Origin: Candidatus Heimdallarchaeota archaeon
GTDB lineage: Archaea > Asgardarchaeota > Heimdallarchaeia > Heimdallarchaeales > Heimdallarchaeaceae
Assembly: GCA_021399345.1 (NCBI GenBank)
Contig: JAAFKI010000136.1
Location: 1-38,489, forward strand
Direction: 5' to 3'
Length of the DNA stretch: 38,489 nucleotides
This document shows, piece after piece, positions 5,269-15,346 of the stretch. The notes under the pieces were generated by a model. It was not told where the DNA came from. It made no database searches and saw nothing but the letters and a program-made list of their open reading frames with translations. The stretch's first letter is position 1. The number at the start of each line of letters is the position of its first letter. The translations under genes and the position numbers were made by a program.

Positions 5269-6294
5269 TTAGTATTTCAGCATATTGCTAACAGCTCTGT
5301 AAGCTTTTTTACGAACTTCTTCATCTAATTCTATAATATTATCGTCTGTTGGCTTTTCGAGAGCTTTCCAAATCGAGAAAAGATCATTTCTCTTCATGCT
5401 AATGCATATCATTTTACTATCCTCAAAATGGATATCAGGATATTCAATTTTCATTCTGTCAATGAACCCTTGTTCGGTTAAGAAAAGAACCTTTTCATCT
5501 TTTGGAGCTTTGGCTGCATACCTGTGCATATCCCCTGTTCCCCCTACAAAATCTACAGAATCAATAATTTCAGGTCGGCATTCAAAATGAGCAAGAGTTT
5601 TTGTATTGTCATCAAGAATTAATTGTTCCAATCTTCTGATTGTGAGTGCATTGTGAGTTCTACAGGAACCTGGCCAAGTTATAATCTTTTTACCAGTAAT
5701 TTTTGCTAAATTATTTCCCATGTTCTCATCGGGAATAAATATGACAGTGTCTTCTTCCAAACTATCTGTGATTTTTCGAGCATTAGCTGAGGTACAGCAA
5801 ATATCTGACTCAGCTTTTACTTCTGCGCTTGTATTAACATAGCAAACAACAGGTGCTCCTGGATATTCTTCCTTAAGTTTTCTAACATCTTCACTTGTTA
5901 TTGAATCTGCTAGAGTACAATCTCTTCCTATTGCTGGAACTAAAATTAACTTCTCTGGATTAAGAATCTTCACAGATTCTGCCATAAAATCAACTCCACA
6001 GAAAAGAATTCGTTTCTCTCTAATTTCAGTTGCTTTCTTAGCAAGAGCAAGCGAATCACCAACAATGTCTGCAATTCCAAAAACAATATCAGCTGTTTGA
6101 TAGGAATGAGCAAGTATCTTGAATCCTCTTTCTTTCTTTAGTTGGTTAATTTTATATGTAAAAGGAGCAATTGATTCGCAAGCATTTTTAGTCCATCCTA
6201 GAGGATTCAATTTTGTAAATAATCTATCAACTTCTTCCTCTAGTAATCCAAACTCCTCACTTCTTATTTCAGGAGTTTCTTCTACAACCACCAT
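5269..6294 (-). CDS. nadA: Quinolinate synthase A (4Fe-4S)
   Basis: LAHSYQ, GDSLAL, FCGVDFMAE, YVNTSAEVKA, CTSANA and AHFEC motifs; Cys-containing motifs DCTLAD, SCRTH and CISMK. Confidence 0.96.
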   Translation of the reverse strand: MVVVEETPEIRSEEFGLLEEEVDRLFTKLNPLGWTKNACESIAPFTYKINQLKKERGFKILAHSYQTADIVFGIADIVGDSLALAKKATEIREKRILFCGVDFMAESVKILNPEKLILVPAIGRDCTLADSITSEDVRKLKEEYPGAPVVCYVNTSAEVKAESDICCTSANARKITDSLEEDTVIFIPDENMGNNLAKITGKKIITWPGSCRTHNALTIRRLEQLILDDNTKTLAHFECRPEIIDSVDFVGGTGDMHRYAAKAPKDEKVLFLTEQGFIDRMKIEYPDIHFEDSKMICISMKRNDLFSIWKALEKPTDDNIIELDEEVRKKAYRAVSNMLKY

Positions 6295-6604
6295 CTCAAC
6301 CGAACTACCCTTTTATGAATTGTATTTAAAGACTGTTTGATTAAGGTCAAAATTGAACTTAAATTTTTAATAGAAGCCTTGAAACTCAAGAAAAATGCAC
6401 TATTGAAGTAATTTCTAGTATAGTATAAGCAATAATTGCCTATTATTCTTAAAGGAAAAGCTTGAAGAAGTATGTTTGAGTGCTTCTAAGCTCATTTATG
6501 TATTGGCGATATGTATATTAAGAGCATCTAAAATTTGGTTTTCTGTGGATAAATATAAATAAACATTTATCATTAATAATAAAGTAAGGAATGTAGATGA
6601 AACC

Positions 6605-7651
6605 ATGATTTTGGCTCTATATGTGTCCAATGATTCTAACTCACAAAAGTTTGCTGGAATAATAAAGGAGACGCTTCTTGAAATTAATCCAGAAGTTGAA
6701 ATCATTGAATTCGAAGATGAAGAATTGAATGAAAACAATTGGGAAAATCAGATGAAAGATTTCTCAACACAAAAAGCAAACTGCATCATCTCAGTAGGCG
6801 ATGCAGGTACATTTCTTAGAGCTATTTTTCTTTCAAGATCATCAGTTCCAGTTGTTGCTGCATCGTCTGAAAGCGTAAGTTTCTTTACTGAAATAAGTCC
6901 AGTTAATCTTCAGTATACCTTAACAAGTATCCTGAATCGAAAATATGATGTCGATAACTATCATAGAGTAGTTTTTCTAGATTCTGGAAATGGTACGCCA
7001 ATTCCTGCACTAAATGAGATAGCTATATTCCCAAAAGATTCAGCACTTTTAATGAATTATACATTAATAATAGATAAGAATCAGCTTTATAGAGGTAGAG
7101 CTGATGGACTAATTGTGTCTACATCTTTAGGAAGTACAGGTTATGCTCTCTCATCAGGCGGTCCTATAGCTTTTGGAAACCCAGATGTTCTGATTATAGT
7201 TCCAGTTAATCCATTGAATAAAGAACACATTCCTTTGGTAGTTCCAATTGATTCAGAGATCAAATTGGTAAACTTGCGTTCAAGATCTCCTCTGGAAGCA
7301 ATAATTGATGGGCAAATAAGAATAGGTATCGATGAGGAAGTATTAGTTAGAAAATCGTCCTCAACAGCTAGAATTATACGATTTCATGCTAAGAAAAACA
7401 TACTTGCTAAACTAAGAAATAGATTAGTTGAGTTAGATCTGAGAACTTTAGAGCGTGTTCCTCCTTCTGCAAAATATATTTTTAAATTGCTTTTAACTGA
7501 AGGAGAAATGACACAGAAAGAATTGATTGAAAGTACAGGATTACCTAATAGAACTGTTCGTAATGCTCTATCTATTCTCAAAGAGAAAGGGGTCATTAAT
7601 CAAAGACCTCATCTACGAGATGCTAGACAATCAATCTATTTTGTTGACTAA
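6605..7651 (+). CDS. NAD kinase family protein with C-terminal winged helix-turn-helix
   Basis: NADK motifs ALNE, DGLIVSTSLGSTGYALSSGGP and IIDGQ; the GGDGT motif reads GDAGT; C-terminal PPSAKYIFKLL..MTQKELIESTGLPNRTVRNALSILKEKGVI..RDARQSIY is a MarR/TrmB-like wHTH. Confidence 0.88.
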   Translation: MILALYVSNDSNSQKFAGIIKETLLEINPEVEIIEFEDEELNENNWENQMKDFSTQKANCIISVGDAGTFLRAIFLSRSSVPVVAASSESVSFFTEISPVNLQYTLTSILNRKYDVDNYHRVVFLDSGNGTPIPALNEIAIFPKDSALLMNYTLIIDKNQLYRGRADGLIVSTSLGSTGYALSSGGPIAFGNPDVLIIVPVNPLNKEHIPLVVPIDSEIKLVNLRSRSPLEAIIDGQIRIGIDEEVLVRKSSSTARIIRFHAKKNILAKLRNRLVELDLRTLERVPPSAKYIFKLLLTEGEMTQKELIESTGLPNRTVRNALSILKEKGVINQRPHLRDARQSIYFVD

Positions 7652-7750
7652 TAGAATAAACTAGGGTATTAACAATTTATCAGAAAGGTTATCAAGATTG
7701 TGAATAATTCTAATCTCTTCTTCTTTAATGTGATTAGCACTATCAGATTT

Positions 7751-7810
7751 TTTAAATAGAGATTATAACAATAATATAGGGAAGAGCAATAAAAAATTAA
7801 TTTGAGAGGA
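7751..7810 (+). promoter_or_regulatory. Putative TATA box and ribosome-binding site of the GTPase cassette
   Basis: TTTAAATA at 7751-7758 and GAGAGGA at 7804-7810, ahead of ATG 7816. Confidence 0.4.
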
Positions 7811-7815
7811 TTTCG

Positions 7816-8508
7816 ATGAATTTGCTGGAACCATTAGTGATGAAGAAAATTACCATTTTAGGAACTACTGGTTCAGGAAAAACAACATTTTTGGAAGCAC
7901 TTTTTGGTAATATTGAAAAAAATGATGTTGCACGAAGAATATTTAGAGAAATTGGGGATAATCTAGATTTCACTCCATTAAAGTATAACAATTTCACTTC
8001 CAGTACAACAACAATCTCACTGAATGTTGTAAATTCAGTACTAATATTGACACGTTTCAACAAAGTTATTTTGAAGAAATATGATCAAGTTGAAACATAT
8101 GATTATGAATCAATTGATTCAGCATTTCAAGTAATTTTCAATGATCCAGCTGGTCAAGAAAGATTTGATTTTATGCAAGAAATAGCATTGAAAGGTTCGG
8201 ATCTTGTTATTATAATGGCTGATGGTACAAATATTTCCTCTTTAGAGAAAATACTTCATTACTTAGAAATGGTCCAAATGGAAGAGGTTAGAAAACAAAG
8301 AAAAATTCCTGTTCTTATTTTCATAAACAAATCAGACCTGCGAGGTAAAGGGATTTATTTGGGGAAAGAGGTAGCTGAAAGAGTAGTTTTTTCATCTATT
8401 ATCGATAGGGAGTTAGTTTTCTATGAAACCTCTAATTTGGATGCAAATTGCTATGAATTACCCTTAACAATCATTTTCAATTATCTTGCTATGCAAGCAT
8501 ATCTTTGA
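7816..8508 (+). CDS. Small Ras-superfamily GTPase (Rab/MglA-like)
   Basis: G1 GTTGSGKTT, G2 STTTISLN, G3 DPAGQERF, G4 NKSD, G5 ETS. Confidence 0.92.
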   Translation: MNLLEPLVMKKITILGTTGSGKTTFLEALFGNIEKNDVARRIFREIGDNLDFTPLKYNNFTSSTTTISLNVVNSVLILTRFNKVILKKYDQVETYDYESIDSAFQVIFNDPAGQERFDFMQEIALKGSDLVIIMADGTNISSLEKILHYLEMVQMEEVRKQRKIPVLIFINKSDLRGKGIYLGKEVAERVVFSSIIDRELVFYETSNLDANCYELPLTIIFNYLAMQAYL

Positions 8509-8548
8509 ACTTCTTCAGACTAACTAAATCTTTATCTATTTTGAACGT

Positions 8549-8932
8549 ATGATTTTGTTGAAGGAAATGAAACAGATTAAACAGCTTACTTTCAACATTA
8601 CTCAAAGTAGGCGTATTAAGAACTATGCTCAAAAGAATGACCTTCATGAAAAAGTGTTACTAGCTAGATATAAAGATATTATGCACACCATATACAAAGC
8701 TTGGGTGAAAAACCTACAAGAAAATCCTGAGTTGCAATTTAGAACTTTCTTTCTAGACATTATGAAATATGCAGAATTTACTTCTAGACTAAAAGAAAGA
8801 AAAGAGGATCTTATCAAAATAAAGAATCATGTTGGAATCTTAGAGGATGCAATCAAAGAATATAAACAAGATTATGCAAAAATCATCAACATTGAACAGA
8901 TCATTAAAGGCTTTGAGGAGGGTGGCATGTAA
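8549..8932 (+). CDS. Hypothetical helical protein
   Basis: 127-aa ORF co-directional in the cassette; its stop overlaps the next start (TAATG). No known motif. Confidence 0.8.
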   Translation: MILLKEMKQIKQLTFNITQSRRIKNYAQKNDLHEKVLLARYKDIMHTIYKAWVKNLQENPELQFRTFFLDIMKYAEFTSRLKERKEDLIKIKNHVGILEDAIKEYKQDYAKIINIEQIIKGFEEGGM

Positions 8933-9381
8933 TGAAAATAGGTACAACTCAATATAATGTTAAATTTAAGGATAAAATTCCTTGTGAGGATGAAGAAATT
9001 CTTGCGAGTGACCTTGCATATTATCTCTACTACTTTGATTTTATCCCCGAAGAGATCATTAATTGGAATATGGAGGATCTTAATGCTAAAAGAAAGCAAG
9101 AAGAGGAGATTTTCACCGAGTTAAGTAAGGAATATTCCAATTTGTTCGGAACATATGCACTAATCAGACAAAAAGCCAATGAACTATATGTAGGAAATAG
9201 AGTTATTGCTCTTACTCTGGGTTTGTTAAGACTAAAATTAATTGAATTAAAAGAAACAGGGAAAGATTTATCCTTAGATTATGATGAATCTATAAAGCAA
9301 ACTGAATATTTTATCTACAGATATCTTACAAAGAAACAGGACAAAAGATTAGTAGAACAAGTCGTTTTTGATGAAAGATAG
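8932..9381 (+). CDS. Hypothetical helical protein
   Basis: 149 aa; strong SD-like GAGGAGGGTGG at 8915-8925; coupled to the upstream ORF by TAATG. Confidence 0.82.
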   Translation: MKIGTTQYNVKFKDKIPCEDEEILASDLAYYLYYFDFIPEEIINWNMEDLNAKRKQEEEIFTELSKEYSNLFGTYALIRQKANELYVGNRVIALTLGLLRLKLIELKETGKDLSLDYDESIKQTEYFIYRYLTKKQDKRLVEQVVFDER

Positions 9382-9400
9382 AATGGATATTTTCCAGATA

Positions 9401-9443
9401 TTACAGACCTTTAGTTAAGGTTACAACCTTCTCAACAAGGTTA
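9401..9443. repeat. Imperfect 20-bp tandem repeat with nested inverted repeats; candidate recombinase binding or crossover site
   Basis: TTACAGACCTTTAGTTAAGG / TTACAACCTTCTCAACAAGG / TTA. It contains AAGGTT-AC-AACCTT (9417-9430) and ends 2 bp before the recombinase ATG. Confidence 0.6.
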
Positions 9444-9445
9444 AT

Positions 9446-10177
9446 ATGATTCGTTGTATTGTTTATGTTAGAACCTCAACATCTGATCAAGAATCAGGTT
9501 TAGAAACACAAATTGATGACGTTACAGCAAAAATCTATCAAGCTGGAGATAGGGAGATCATCAAAATAATCAAAGACGAGGATGTTCCAGGTGATAGTGA
9601 TCCGGAATATAGAGAAGGATTCATTGAGATTCTAAGAATGGTTGAAGAAAATGAATTTGATGAGTTGTGGAGTCAATCTAGAGACCGTTTATCGAGAGAT
9701 GTAGATATTCTAGGATATATTCGTGTTATGCTCAAGAAAAAAGAAATATCTATCATCTGTTTAGATGATGAAGATAACAAAGCATTTGCCAGAATAAAGG
9801 ATCTTTTTGGAGAAATGGAGTTAGAGAAATATAGAGAGAAACGATACAAAGGTATGTTACGAAGAATAAATAACAAAAAAGTTATGTCTCGTCCTCCATT
9901 TGGATATGCAGTTGATGAGGGAGGAAGCCTAATAGTTGATGAAAGTAAAATGGGTCTTATTAGACGTCTTTTCGGTGAGTTTGATAATCCTTTTGCATCA
10001 CTAAAGACCTTAAGTATGAAATATAACATCCCTGTATCCACTTTGAGAAATATACGATCTAATCCTATCTATAGAACAGGAGAAGTAAGGTGGGCTGGGA
10101 AAATAGCTTATTATGTAGATCCAATTGTTCCAGAAGATAAAGATCAGATGTTAAAAACTGAATGGGAAGGAAGCTGA
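9446..10177 (+). CDS. Serine recombinase (resolvase catalytic domain plus recombinase domain, no zinc ribbon)
   Basis: YVRTSTSDQ (catalytic Ser), SRDRLSRD, PPFGY and TLRNIRSNPIYRTG motifs; 243 aa. Confidence 0.92.
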   Translation: MIRCIVYVRTSTSDQESGLETQIDDVTAKIYQAGDREIIKIIKDEDVPGDSDPEYREGFIEILRMVEENEFDELWSQSRDRLSRDVDILGYIRVMLKKKEISIICLDDEDNKAFARIKDLFGEMELEKYREKRYKGMLRRINNKKVMSRPPFGYAVDEGGSLIVDESKMGLIRRLFGEFDNPFASLKTLSMKYNIPVSTLRNIRSNPIYRTGEVRWAGKIAYYVDPIVPEDKDQMLKTEWEGS

Positions 10178-10184
10178 AGCCCTC

Positions 10185-11090
10185 TTACTCATACATTTCT
10201 CTAATATACTCCTTTTCAAGGACTATTCTTACGTCTGGTATATTAGTGCTGAAGCCATATTCTGTGATGAATCCAGTAATCAAATTAGCTGGTATTATTT
10301 CAAAATAAGGGTTGTAAACTTTAACTTCCTTTGGTTTATCCTTTGCCCAAACCTCTGAGGATGGATAACTTTGTATAGTGAAGGGAATAGATTTCAAAAG
10401 TAGCTTTAGAGTGGTACTAGTGACATAAAAAGGAACTTTATCTTGAGAAGCGAAAATAGCTAAAGCATGACAGCCTATTTTATTTACAACATTTCCATTA
10501 GGAAAAATAGTGTCTGCACCTATAAGCACCAAATCAGGATTCAAAGCTTTAATAGCTCTTCCAACAGCTGCATCTACAAGGTAATTAACCTTATACCCTA
10601 GATTAACTGCTTCCAAAGCTAATTTCTTACCTTCTAGCGCAGGTCTTGATTCAAAAACTGTTAACTCTGGAAGCTTATCTGAGTCTTGTGTTTCGCTTAG
10701 TTTTTTGAGTGCACAGAATATTGTACTTGATCTTGACATAGTCACGATATTTTTACACTGGGAAATAATGGGTTTTAGTTTATCTATGAGATGCTTTCTT
10801 TGTTCATCCATCTTTTCAATTACTCTATCAGCTAAATCCTCAACAGCGACACCATGTTGAAAGAAATCCATGAAATAAATCAAAACATTTCGAAGAGCAG
10901 ACATTTCTTTTTTAATATCTATAACCTTACGTAGCATTTCTGAAAGGTCAATTATTTTGCCAAATCTAGCTGGATTTAATTGAATTTCATTTTTAATAAG
11001 CAGAACAGCTTTACGGACTATTTCTTCAGATCCACTGACTTTATCAGTTTTCAAACGTGCAATTTGTTCTTGAAATTCTTTGGAATACAC
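10185..11090 (-). CDS. Initiation factor 2B family protein (aIF-2B / MtnA / R15P isomerase superfamily)
   Basis: DKVSGS, TMSRSSTI, ESRPALEG, GADTI..G.VVNKIG, NPYFE..P..LITGFITE motifs; GTG start. Confidence 0.88.
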   Translation of the reverse strand: MYSKEFQEQIARLKTDKVSGSEEIVRKAVLLIKNEIQLNPARFGKIIDLSEMLRKVIDIKKEMSALRNVLIYFMDFFQHGVAVEDLADRVIEKMDEQRKHLIDKLKPIISQCKNIVTMSRSSTIFCALKKLSETQDSDKLPELTVFESRPALEGKKLALEAVNLGYKVNYLVDAAVGRAIKALNPDLVLIGADTIFPNGNVVNKIGCHALAIFASQDKVPFYVTSTTLKLLLKSIPFTIQSYPSSEVWAKDKPKEVKVYNPYFEIIPANLITGFITEYGFSTNIPDVRIVLEKEYIREMYE

Positions 11091-11150
11091 AAAGCTTCAG
11101 TTGGAAATGCCTTTAAAAAGTTGTTTCTTTCCTTAAAAAAGATCAAAAGA

Positions 11151-11885
11151 CTATAGACTAAAGAAATCTTTTTCCTCATCTATAATTTCAATGTATAATC
11201 TGTCATATTTGTGTGTTAGATGAATTATATTTTCTGGTAAAATTCTTTCCTTCGATTTTGCAAAGAATGTTCGAACTGTAGCTAAATCTTCTTCATCAAT
11301 CATCATATCTTTTTGAATCCTAATGATAAGAAGAGGAATTTTTTTGTTTTCCTCTAGAATATCTTCTACATTTCTCCCTACCTTACGAACACATCCATTG
11401 TATTCTTTTTTCATTTTTCCCGCACCATTTTCAACTAATCTCTCTAGACCTTCAAATGATGCAGGTATTGCTTTTTTGAGATTAAATCCACTAACTATGA
11501 AATTGAAAGGAAATAAAAGAGCAATGAAGATTGCTAAGAAATAGATTAGTGGAACGGGAAGCTTAAACAAAAAATTAAGAAACCAATGAGGTGTCAAAAT
11601 TCGAGCAGCACCAATAAGAATAACCCCTTTGCAGTTTGTAAGTGCTCTTCTACTGAGAAGCTCAATAATATTACAACCACCCATACTATATCCAGCAATC
11701 ATAAACGGTCTGTTTTCGGGGATTAGTGATTCTATTTCTTCTAGATGATCATCTATTGTGAATCTCTTGTAATTGGTTGTATATGCAAAATTGTCTTTCC
11801 CATACCTTTCTTCATATGTAGGATAGGTTCTCTTATAATTACTAAAACCTGGAGCTAGAATCATGAATGGTTCTTTTTCAGACAT
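11151..11885 (-). CDS. Alpha/beta hydrolase
   Basis: APGF oxyanion loop, GYSMGG nucleophile elbow, late Asp and His. ATG 11885 preferred over TTG 11924. Confidence 0.8.
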   Translation of the reverse strand: MSEKEPFMILAPGFSNYKRTYPTYEERYGKDNFAYTTNYKRFTIDDHLEEIESLIPENRPFMIAGYSMGGCNIIELLSRRALTNCKGVILIGAARILTPHWFLNFLFKLPVPLIYFLAIFIALLFPFNFIVSGFNLKKAIPASFEGLERLVENGAGKMKKEYNGCVRKVGRNVEDILEENKKIPLLIIRIQKDMMIDEEDLATVRTFFAKSKERILPENIIHLTHKYDRLYIEIIDEEKDFFSL

Positions 11886-14284: not shown

Positions 14285-15346
14285 CTAAGTCAAATATACC
14301 GGCTTGTGAGGATATATTGGAATTAAATGGTTACACTTTGGGCATCTACTATTTTCTGTTATGTTGTTGAAAATAACAGAAAACACATTCCTTTTTATCA
14401 GTAATTCTGAGCAATTTGGACAGTATGTGCTCTGGAAAGGGTGGCCTGGAATATTTCCCAAATAAACGAAATTTAATCCTTCGTCTTTTGCAATGGTATG
14501 TGCTTTTTGAAGCTGTGAAATTGTAGTCTTAGGAATTTGAGTTAAGTGGGAAGGGAAGTATCTAATAAAATGTACAGGGGTATTAGCAGAGAGGTTTTTG
14601 ATAACTTTCTGGGAGAAATCTCTAATGAATTCTTCGTCATCATTTATTGTTGGGATAACTAAATACACGAGTTCGATGTGAACACTTCTTTGATAAGCCA
14701 TTTGGAGATTTTCCCAAATATATTTGACTTTTATATCTAATAAGCAATCAGCAACATTTTCTGTCCCTTTGAAGCTGACAGTTAAACCATTCATGCCTGC
14801 TGAAATAAGATAATCGAGAGCTTCTCCTGTCATATATCCATTAGAAACAAACATTTTGTAATAGTCATTAGGAAGCAATTGGAAAACATCCACTGCAAAT
14901 TCAAAAGAAAGTGTTGGTTCATTAAAGGAGAAACAAACCCCATTTATGGAGGGATTAAAACGAGCATTTTCAACAACTTTTTCTGGAGTCATTAGACTTG
15001 CATCAGTAAATTTTTCCGGTCGAAGATTCTTAGTAATATCCCAATTTATACACCAATCACAATCAAAATTGCATCCCCAAGAACCTAATGTTAAAGTGGT
15101 TGATCCAGGAAAATAGTGATAAGCTGGTTTTTTTTCTATGGGATTAAGACTATAACTAGAAATATCTCCGTATTGAATGGAGTAGAGTTTGCCGTTAAAA
15201 TTTTGCCTTGTTTTACATTTACCCATTTCTCCCTCTTTAATAACACACATTCTTCTGCATGTTAAACACTGAACAGTATCACCATTCATTCTCTTGAAAA
15301 GATAAGACTGTCTTATTCGGGGATCTTTAGTGCTCAATGTTTTCAT
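14285..15346 (-). CDS. amrS: AmmeMemoRadiSam-system radical SAM enzyme (PflX/AmrS-like)
   Basis: N-terminal CLTCRRMC..G.C..R, PIEKKP.YHYFPG, CNFDCDWC.NW.I, FNEPT, FVYLGN, T.CP.C and C-terminal CPKC. Confidence 0.88.
   Translation of the reverse strand: MKTLSTKDPRIRQSYLFKRMNGDTVQCLTCRRMCVIKEGEMGKCKTRQNFNGKLYSIQYGDISSYSLNPIEKKPAYHYFPGSTTLTLGSWGCNFDCDWCINWDITKNLRPEKFTDASLMTPEKVVENARFNPSINGVCFSFNEPTLSFEFAVDVFQLLPNDYYKMFVSNGYMTGEALDYLISAGMNGLTVSFKGTENVADCLLDIKVKYIWENLQMAYQRSVHIELVYLVIPTINDDEEFIRDFSQKVIKNLSANTPVHFIRYFPSHLTQIPKTTISQLQKAHTIAKDEGLNFVYLGNIPGHPFQSTYCPNCSELLIKRNVFSVIFNNITENSRCPKCNHLIPIYPHKPVYLT

Follow-up and report, generated by a model that had tools for sequence, protein, structure and literature searches.

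The window analysed here, a stretch of 38,489 nucleotides (nt) at positions 1 to 38,489 of contig JAAFKI010000136.1 in the Candidatus Heimdallarchaeota archaeon assembly GCA_021399345.1 (88.6% complete), carries a block of four genes encoding a Ras-superfamily small GTPase, two orphan helical proteins (ORF2 and ORF3) and a short serine recombinase that we call SerRec-A. With a probability of roughly 0.6, we read this block as a vertically inherited, Heimdallarchaeaceae-specific chromosomal neighbourhood made up of three units, the GTPase, the ORF2–ORF3 pair and the recombinase, whose functional coupling is only putative. The pairing of GTPase and recombinase is most likely an inherited adjacency. 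A preliminary description of this DNA had proposed, as one of two alternatives, a domesticated and GTPase-gated DNA rearrangement module, and the first of these adjectives fits the recombinase: SerRec-A is a large serine recombinase in shortened, domesticated form. What is notable about the locus is the combination of a domesticated recombinase pair, a conserved DNA motif, inactive derivatives and a missing XerA. Literature searches returned nothing on the cluster, on Heimdallarchaeum serine recombinases or on loss of XerA in Asgard archaea.

A conserved chromosomal neighbourhood

The genes of the block and its immediate flanks are as follows (aa, amino acids).

7816-8508, forward strand: Ras-superfamily small GTPase of paralog lineage 'beta', 230 aa (Pfam Ras and Roc, NCBIfam small_GTP)
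8549-8932, forward strand: ORF2, orphan helical protein, 127 aa (AlphaFold model)
8932-9381, forward strand: ORF3, orphan helical-hairpin protein, 149 aa; its start shares 1 nt with the ORF2 stop
9446-10177, forward strand: SerRec-A, short serine recombinase, 243 aa (Pfam Resolvase)
6605-7651: left flank, gene for an NAD kinase with a winged helix-turn-helix, NADK-HTH (Pfam)
10185-11090, reverse strand: right flank, IF-2B family gene (Pfam)

The four co-directional genes at 7816-10177, with gaps of 40, -1 and 64 base pairs (bp), and their flanks, NADK-HTH on the NAD side and IF-2B on the other, are as first described. Base composition does not shift across the block, and each of the four genes shows purifying selection, the ratio of nonsynonymous to synonymous substitution rates (dN/dS) being 0.02-0.20. 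Within g1, the genus of the window genome, a tblastn map of 15 loci places the block in the series NadA, NADK-HTH, block, IF-2B, alpha/beta-hydrolase, membrane protein and amidohydrolase. The order from NadA to the hydrolase is unchanged at all 13 loci where both flanks could be read, and the flanks diverge as much as the block or more. The four genes keep the same order wherever they are present in this genus, and at least 12 genomes carry all of them intact on one contig. Across 31 Heimdallarchaeaceae genomes from five genera (g1, g10, g11, g12 and g13, the last comprising two closed genomes) the right flank is syntenic in all five, with these arrangements of the block itself.

Genus g1: NADK-HTH, GTPase, ORF2, ORF3, SerRec-A
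Genus g13: giant gene, GTPase, extra 324-aa gene, ORF2, ORF3, SerRec-A
Genus g10: giant gene, ORF2, ORF3, SerRec-A; GTPase elsewhere
Genus g12: full block; second, closer GTPase copy elsewhere
Genus g11: SerRec-A alone beside the hydrolase gene; ORF3 on another contig

Identity to g13 falls from 77% for SerRec-A and 63% for the GTPase through 50% for the hydrolase, 46% for ORF3 and 41% for ORF2 to 34% for IF-2B. Because IF-2B, the hydrolase and further genes are equally syntenic, a conserved order at this depth is only a weak sign that genes function together.

The same data refute the other alternative in the preliminary description, a minimal mobile element with a eukaryote-like GTPase as its cargo, and equally a reading of the block as the remnant of such an element. 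Mobile elements are the usual carriers of serine recombinases, and SerRec-A is similar to phage integrases over their N-terminal half, but this origin is hardly credible for a block whose flanks are the same throughout the genus and diverge no less than the block, whose right flank is syntenic in five genera, and whose four genes are all under purifying selection. Phage and plasmid genes are absent, base composition does not shift, and neither terminal repeats nor a second site were found in the assembly. The empty site and the circular or inverted junctions that the preliminary description envisaged did not appear either: metagenome contigs from four DNA runs, compared with window positions 6500-11200, contain no inversion, excision, empty-site or other alternative joint, a result that is uninformative on recombinase activity.

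A short serine recombinase and its paralog

SerRec-A matches Pfam Resolvase (PF00239, curated cut-off 23.3 bits) over residues 5-142 with 65.2 bits (E = 9.3e-18), and its YxRxS and DRLSR motifs are intact, as previously noted, with Y7, R9, S11 and D80-R81...R84 present; the same six residues are found in genera g1, g10 and g13. Residues 1-219 correspond to positions 87-322 of the 651-position phrog_95 integrase (4.3e-27), the XisF and CcrA models of NCBIfam match residues 1-170, and the PDB profile matches are to catalytic domains of large serine recombinases. SerRec-A is alone in the block in having a meaningful PHROGs match, and a PADLOC search of ORF2, ORF3 and SerRec-A returned no match. 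The protein consists of a catalytic domain followed by the first part of a 'recombinase domain' with PPFGY and NPIYRTGE. Residue 243 is its last, and it has no zinc ribbon or coiled coil and no match to PF07508 or PF13408 at E<=0.1.

This architecture sets SerRec-A apart from three established classes. With the large serine recombinases, exemplified by TP901-1 integrase, the 3g13 conjugative-transposon recombinase and phrog_95, it shares Y-x-R-x-S, D-R-L-x-R and the E-helix region as well as PPFGY and NPxYxTGE, and its best profile matches are of this type. A full member (~450-700 aa with PF07508, PF13408 and a coiled coil) it is not: at 243 aa it is without the zinc-ribbon and coiled-coil parts used for att recognition and directionality, its gene is chromosomal, single-copy and fixed throughout the family and comes with neither an element nor att sites nor a directionality factor, and two genera carry catalytically dead versions. 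Small resolvases and invertases such as gamma-delta, Hin and Gin are proteins of ~180-200 aa ending in an HTH_7-type helix-turn-helix of ~45 aa; SerRec-A has no HTH_7 match, and its C-terminal 100 aa instead contain PPFGY and NPIYRTGE. IS607-type transposases have an N-terminal MerR-like helix-turn-helix and usually a TnpB partner, whereas SerRec-A scores 31.5 bits against a cut-off of 110, has its catalytic domain at the N-terminus and has no TnpB nearby.

Conservation of SerRec-A exceeds that of every neighbouring gene, with 82-99% identity within the genus and 76-83% in g10 and g13, and its dN (0.005-0.054) is the lowest among the genes compared. Orthologs in g11 and g12 have lost the catalytic serine motif and the DRLSR cluster while the frame has stayed open, and the C-terminal residues R149, P151, G153, Y154, N206, Y209, T211, G212 and E213 are invariant even there. 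SerRec-A has a paralog in the window genome, SerRec-B, which is also a short serine recombinase and shares 46% identity with it (contig C125:45946-46695 of the window assembly G000, corresponding to L002:1462-2211, reverse strand). SerRec-B lies between the gene for a 410-aa beta-helix protein and a divergent LarE-LarC-LarB operon, with neither a GTPase nor ORF2 or ORF3 as a neighbour; it is 73-88% identical across genera, and in all five it is syntenic and has intact catalytic motifs. Mobile DNA and developmental excisions are almost the only settings in which serine recombinases are known. SerRec-A and SerRec-B are fixed, single-copy and under very strong purifying selection, which argues that they serve the cell and not a mobile element.

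Further relatives were seen. A third resolvase-domain match in the window assembly (contig C89:7023-7193) is fragmentary and interrupted by a stop codon. Homologues with 50-55% identity (P0038 and P0043, at L054 and L056) occur on other archaeal metagenome contigs, one of them labelled Euryarchaeota. There they are solitary; the surrounding genes (MCM, NMD3, ELP3) look chromosomal, and giant NosD/beta-helix genes lie nearby.

Conserved motifs upstream of the recombinases

The 64-bp spacer between ORF3 and SerRec-A holds three of the four elements listed here.

9387-9405, forward strand: ATATTTT (9387-9393) and TATTACA (9399-9405), in the ORF3–SerRec-A spacer, conserved across genus orthologs
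9406-9422, no strand assigned: distal palindrome GACCTT-N5-AAGGTT
9425-9442, no strand assigned: proximal palindrome AACCTT-N6-AAGGTT, ending 3 nt before the SerRec-A ATG
7739-7759, forward strand: promoter-like element before the GTPase gene, ACTATCAG followed by TATA-like TTTTTAAATA (7748-7757), ~60 nt before the ATG

The element at 9387-9405 may be the promoter of the recombinase gene, a T-run terminator of the genes before it, or both, and GTATTACA is common to both recombinase paralogs ~45 nt upstream. Genera g1 and g10 retain both palindromes. All five genera, among them g11 and g12 with their inactive recombinases, retain the proximal palindrome, always 3-8 nt before the ATG and with invariant half-sites; the distance between the two palindromes varies by 2-3 bp among species. 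That the half-sites are invariant while the spacer cannot be aligned between genera points to sequence-specific recognition and not to mere base pairing. Upstream of the SerRec-B genes, AAGGT-N1-3-ACCTTCTTA occupies a similar position and contains the same ACCTT half-site. The simplest reading is that the C-terminal domain shared by SerRec-A and SerRec-B binds this motif. Since the loss of catalytic residues in g11 and g12 has spared the gene, its C-terminal domain and its palindrome, part of the role of SerRec-A is probably non-catalytic DNA binding.

A genome-wide search for the palindrome gave 8 strict matches against 1.7 expected, among them the two at the locus, with the others scattered and not consistently placed; no convincing second copy was found elsewhere in the 88.6%-complete assembly. 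One possible second site, AAGGT-N5-ACCTT within the IF-2B gene (10578), was rejected as a by-product of K-V-N-Y-L codons whose synonymous positions vary among species. In species G042 (L066:7340-7385), a microsatellite of (ATGTC)x5 then (ATGTA)x2 lies just upstream of TATTACA and the palindromes, and its length could vary.

From these elements we would propose that SerRec-A is probably transcribed from its own promoter, and that SerRec-A or a close partner binds the ACCTT/AAGGT palindromes abutting the start codon, which would autoregulate the gene and/or mark the site of action of its product. In the resolution systems of Tn3/gamma-delta (res), RK2 (ParA-res) and pSM19035 (beta-six) the site adjoins the recombinase gene. 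The present locus likewise has tandem inverted repeats directly before the recombinase gene, overlapping the likely promoter or 5' end, and a single site per replicon, which by analogy would suit autoregulation together with dimer resolution. It differs in that SerRec-A has no C-terminal HTH_7, in that the gene is on neither a transposon nor a plasmid, in an activity that is only putative, and in dimensions: the palindromes here are 16-18 bp long with hexamers 5-6 bp apart, against subsites of 25-34 bp. Recombination at the palindromes is only putative because their geometry is unlike that of known serine-recombinase crossover sites.

XerA and a possible housekeeping role

A survey of 70 genomes of the class with completeness of at least 80% revealed a complementary distribution of recombinases. 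An A/B-type recombinase is present in 26 of 26 Heimdallarchaeaceae and in 0 of 43 genomes elsewhere; XerA-type matches (E<=1e-30) occur in 39 of the 43 and, sporadically and with uneven scores, in 4 of the 26. Proteins of the sister family score as XerA/XerC. In the closed genome G045, neither PF00589 nor XerA matches anything and A and B are the sole recombinase-domain matches, and no XerA-type tyrosine recombinase was found in the window assembly. Such a distribution reflects a single evolutionary event and is therefore suggestive only.

These observations invite the idea that XerA gave way to SerRec-B in chromosome-dimer resolution or other housekeeping site-specific recombination, with SerRec-A contributing a second subunit, catalytic or accessory, and the palindromic site acting as a res or dif that is present once per chromosome and forms direct repeats only in a dimer. 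The distributions, the XerA/XerC scores of the sister family, the closed genome with A and B alone and, by analogy with Tn3, RK2 and pSM19035, a single-copy site adjoining its own gene all point this way. Set against them are the weak correlation that a single event affords, a SerRec-A that is catalytically dead in two genera, a 16-18 bp palindrome where crossover sites span ~26-30 bp, an inter-palindrome spacing that is not constant, the lack of an identified site for SerRec-B, a genus g1 genome with an Xer-like gene at the model cut-off, and activities of A and B that are only putative. We therefore regard the substitution of XerA, its res- or dif-like site and, more broadly, any housekeeping recombination role of the pair such as dimer resolution as tentative ideas, possible but doubtful. 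A fuller scheme, in which the family lost XerA and relies on the pair, the palindrome is res/dif-like and ORF2, ORF3 and perhaps the GTPase act as accessory or timing factors, seems rather improbable, and so does the division of labour within it, with SerRec-B always catalytic and SerRec-A either catalytic or a DNA-binding accessory subunit. Compared with archaeal XerA/dif, the A/B pair, present where XerA-type genes are missing in the class, would be a possible functional analogue only: XerA belongs to the tyrosine-recombinase superfamily and works by a different mechanism, and a dif-like role here is only putative.

ORF2 and ORF3

The two coupled helical ORFs had been described as having no recognisable motif, and profile searches agree: neither has a family match in Pfam, NCBIfam, PHROG or PADLOC. 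The AlphaFold model of ORF2 (predicted local distance difference test score, pLDDT, 85.7) predicts short N-terminal helices and one long helix at residues 64-125, and that of ORF3 (pLDDT 72.7) an all-helical hairpin with one very long helix. Foldseek gave no more than weak matches of the ORF2 N-terminus to ribbon-helix-helix proteins (CopG, Arc, ParG and antitoxins; E 2-6, not significant), in a monomer model that cannot show the paired strand of a ribbon-helix-helix dimer, and none of 22 family members has a Pfam ribbon-helix-helix match; a ribbon-helix-helix-like N-terminus is thus a weak lead from modelling. For ORF3 neither Foldseek nor VIA-align found a specific fold, and the VIA-align matches of both proteins are to generic coiled coils, long helices or helical hairpins with Z<=8.1, below the meaningful level for helical proteins. 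Family and fold searches found no features of a GTPase-activating protein (GAP), guanine-nucleotide exchange factor (GEF), roadblock or longin domain in either. A toxin–antitoxin identity was rejected, with no family or defence match and a pair that is syntenic and not patchy.

Both families are confined to this lineage, with 76 cluster representatives of ORF2 restricted to Heimdallarchaeaceae-type sequences and 18 representatives of ORF3 among 1.84 billion proteins. They are constrained (dN/dS 0.07-0.20 for ORF2 and 0.07-0.15 for ORF3), and they diverge far faster than the flanking genes, with a raised dS for the pair: against one close species, identity is 95% for the GTPase, 77% for ORF2, 77% for ORF3 and 99% for SerRec-A. 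Metagenome contigs fragment or drop in depth across the two genes, consistent with strain divergence there, and comparison of window positions 8549-9381 with L021 and L023 looks like allele replacement or rapid diversification. Because they are translationally coupled and co-vary, we take ORF2 and ORF3 as partners, a lineage-restricted coupled pair that probably forms a small coiled-coil complex and possibly binds DNA. Other genomes of the genus carry a paralogous pair, ~30% identical, with no GTPase or recombinase nearby (L036-L041, for example L039:4606-5903); a 169-aa gene precedes it, Nudix and cation/proton antiporter genes are its neighbours, and the module was not found in the window assembly. 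A roadblock-like identity for the 169-aa protein was rejected; a flavin-reductase-like one, from Atlas features, is a lead only.

The small GTPase

The GTPase belongs to the Ras superfamily by its profile matches, Pfam Ras at 39.5 bits (cut-off 21.6; 5.6e-10), Roc at 2.8e-08 and NCBIfam small_GTP (TIGR00231, cut-off 42.5 bits) at 47.1 bits, and by its motifs. Of the five G motifs previously claimed, three are plain (G1, GTTGSGKT, 16-23; G3, DPAGQ, 110-114; G4, NKSD, 171-174), G5 is plausible only (TSN, 205-207) and the position of G2 is uncertain. Relative to Ras, an insert of ~55 residues separates G1 from G3, and the Pfam Ras match spans only residues 102-211. The closest solved structures are Arl8, M-Ras and Ypt7 (E ~1e-6), and PADLOC gave weak partial P-loop matches only. 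The protein thus shares G1, G3, G4 and the superfamily signature with Asgard and eukaryote-like small GTPases related to Arl8, Ras and Rab, and differs from them in its insert, in having no adjoining roadblock or longin gene and in its mostly solitary orthologs.

The TATA-like box noted ahead of the GTPase gene is real, being TTTTTAAATA at 7748-7757; together with ACTATCAG it is kept in most aligned genomes of the genus and absent from one subclade, and it is probably a promoter. Within the genus, orthologs share 76-95% identity with it; in other families of the order the figure is 36-48%. Outside Heimdallarchaeaceae the orthologs are solitary, with varying neighbours. In genus g10 the GTPase, 77% identical, lies on another contig among unrelated genes; in g13 one extra gene separates it from ORF2; and in species G004 it is a pseudogene with many stop codons beside intact ORF2, ORF3 and SerRec-A. 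The GTPase tree resolves two paralog lineages, one used by the g13 and g12 blocks and the other by the g1 block. We would accordingly describe the GTPase as a probably independent unit, with its own promoter-like element, of an order-wide family that normally stands alone. In species G021 (L034:7949-9431) tandem GTPase genes precede ORF2, the second being 64% identical and at the base of the 'beta' lineage.

Inheritance, function and alternative readings

Several observations weigh against reading the block as an inherited neighbourhood of three separable units. The order ORF2–ORF3–SerRec-A is kept in four of the five genera and a GTPase of the same family lies upstream in three, either of which may reflect function and not inertia; two GTPase paralogs occupy one relative position, and the adjacency could be selected; all four genes may be co-transcribed; and ORF2 might be what binds the palindrome, or the palindrome might function as an RNA hairpin. 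The public sequencing runs that were searched for the locus listed no RNA run. Intact catalytic residues at high sequence identity, 82-99% within the genus, would also imply that recombination activity is retained in g1, g10 and g13, on a substrate that was not found. The preliminary description proposed that all four proteins make up a single recombination system gated by the GTPase, in which ORF2 and ORF3 serve as GAP/GEF or directionality factors. In its favour are the conserved order and tight spacing in the genus, the four intact genes sharing a contig in at least 12 genomes, the recurrence of the order in g12 and, with one extra gene, in g13, and the upstream GTPase of this family in three of five genera, drawn from two paralog lineages. 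We nevertheless find the proposal unsupported and quite unlikely. Its GTPase is unlinked in g10, solitary in other families and a pseudogene in G004 next to three intact genes; SerRec-B does without these partners, as the paralogous ORF2/ORF3 pair does without a GTPase or recombinase; the recombinase appears to have a promoter-like element and an operator-like site of its own; the block persists with a dead recombinase in g12; IF-2B and the hydrolase, plainly unrelated, are just as syntenic, making adjacency weak evidence; and no GAP, GEF, roadblock or longin features were found in ORF2 and ORF3 by family and fold searches. The preliminary description had named unlinked GTPase and recombinase homologues in related genomes as evidence against its own proposal; this holds in part, the two being unlinked in g10 and linked in g1, g12 and g13.

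An alternative role for ORF2 and ORF3 would have the ribbon-helix-helix-like N-terminus of ORF2, in a coiled-coil complex with ORF3, bind the palindromes and control the recombinase gene. Their adjacency to SerRec-A in four of five genera and the weak Foldseek matches to CopG, Arc, ParG and antitoxins are in its favour and, from established knowledge of Arc and CopG, half-sites ~11 bp apart centre to centre would suit two dimers. It is an unlikely role given the absence of a Pfam ribbon-helix-helix match in all 22 members and the Foldseek E values of 2-6, and given that the palindrome is kept in g11, where ORF2 and ORF3 are not adjacent, that the same half-site precedes SerRec-B with no such neighbour, and that both proteins diverge fast while the palindrome is invariant. 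Insertions beside SerRec-A raise a further possibility, that it captures cassettes in an integron-like manner, inserting mostly secreted- or surface-protein genes next to its own gene. A 275-aa secreted-protein gene lies between the recombinase and IF-2B in G001 and G023, two paralogous surface-protein genes of ~1160 aa each lie beside SerRec-A in G004, and in G041 a 624-aa beta-helix gene separates ORF3 from SerRec-A, with the palindromes remaining with SerRec-A. These insertions are independent, and two carry duplications: in G004 a second copy of the final 93 nt of the recombinase gene stands between the inserts (L030:10753-10845 and 14552-14643; 76% identity, E 2e-14), and diverged copies of ~40 nt of the IF-2B 3' end stand on both sides of the insert in G023 (L026:4696-4740 and 5760-5800), a footprint that resembles integration into the 3' end of a gene. 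Beta-helix or giant surface-protein genes also adjoin SerRec-B and the distant homologues. Yet the G004 pattern is what ordinary tandem duplication of a unit of gene tail and adhesin gene would be expected to leave, the insert borders, including those in G041, share no core or palindrome copy, other junctions of the neighbourhood carry insertions and deletions as well, and the 275-aa gene comes from a large resident paralog family. Cassette capture is accordingly very unlikely, and the insertions beside SerRec-A are a lead.

Conclusions

In summary, SerRec-A and SerRec-B form a compact pair that is fixed in every searched genome of one Asgard family and evolves more slowly than its housekeeping neighbours. 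The inactive orthologs of g11 and g12 would offer a clear case in nature of a recombinase that has become a DNA-binding factor, and the pairing of GTPase and recombinase in the window is a caution that conserved gene order within one family does not amount to a functional operon. If the tentative replacement of XerA by the pair is true, it would be, to our knowledge, the first cellular replacement of Xer by a serine recombinase, and it would bear on chromosome maintenance in Heimdallarchaeaceae, a family with Heimdallarchaeum enrichment cultures and circularised genomes (PMC8813620).

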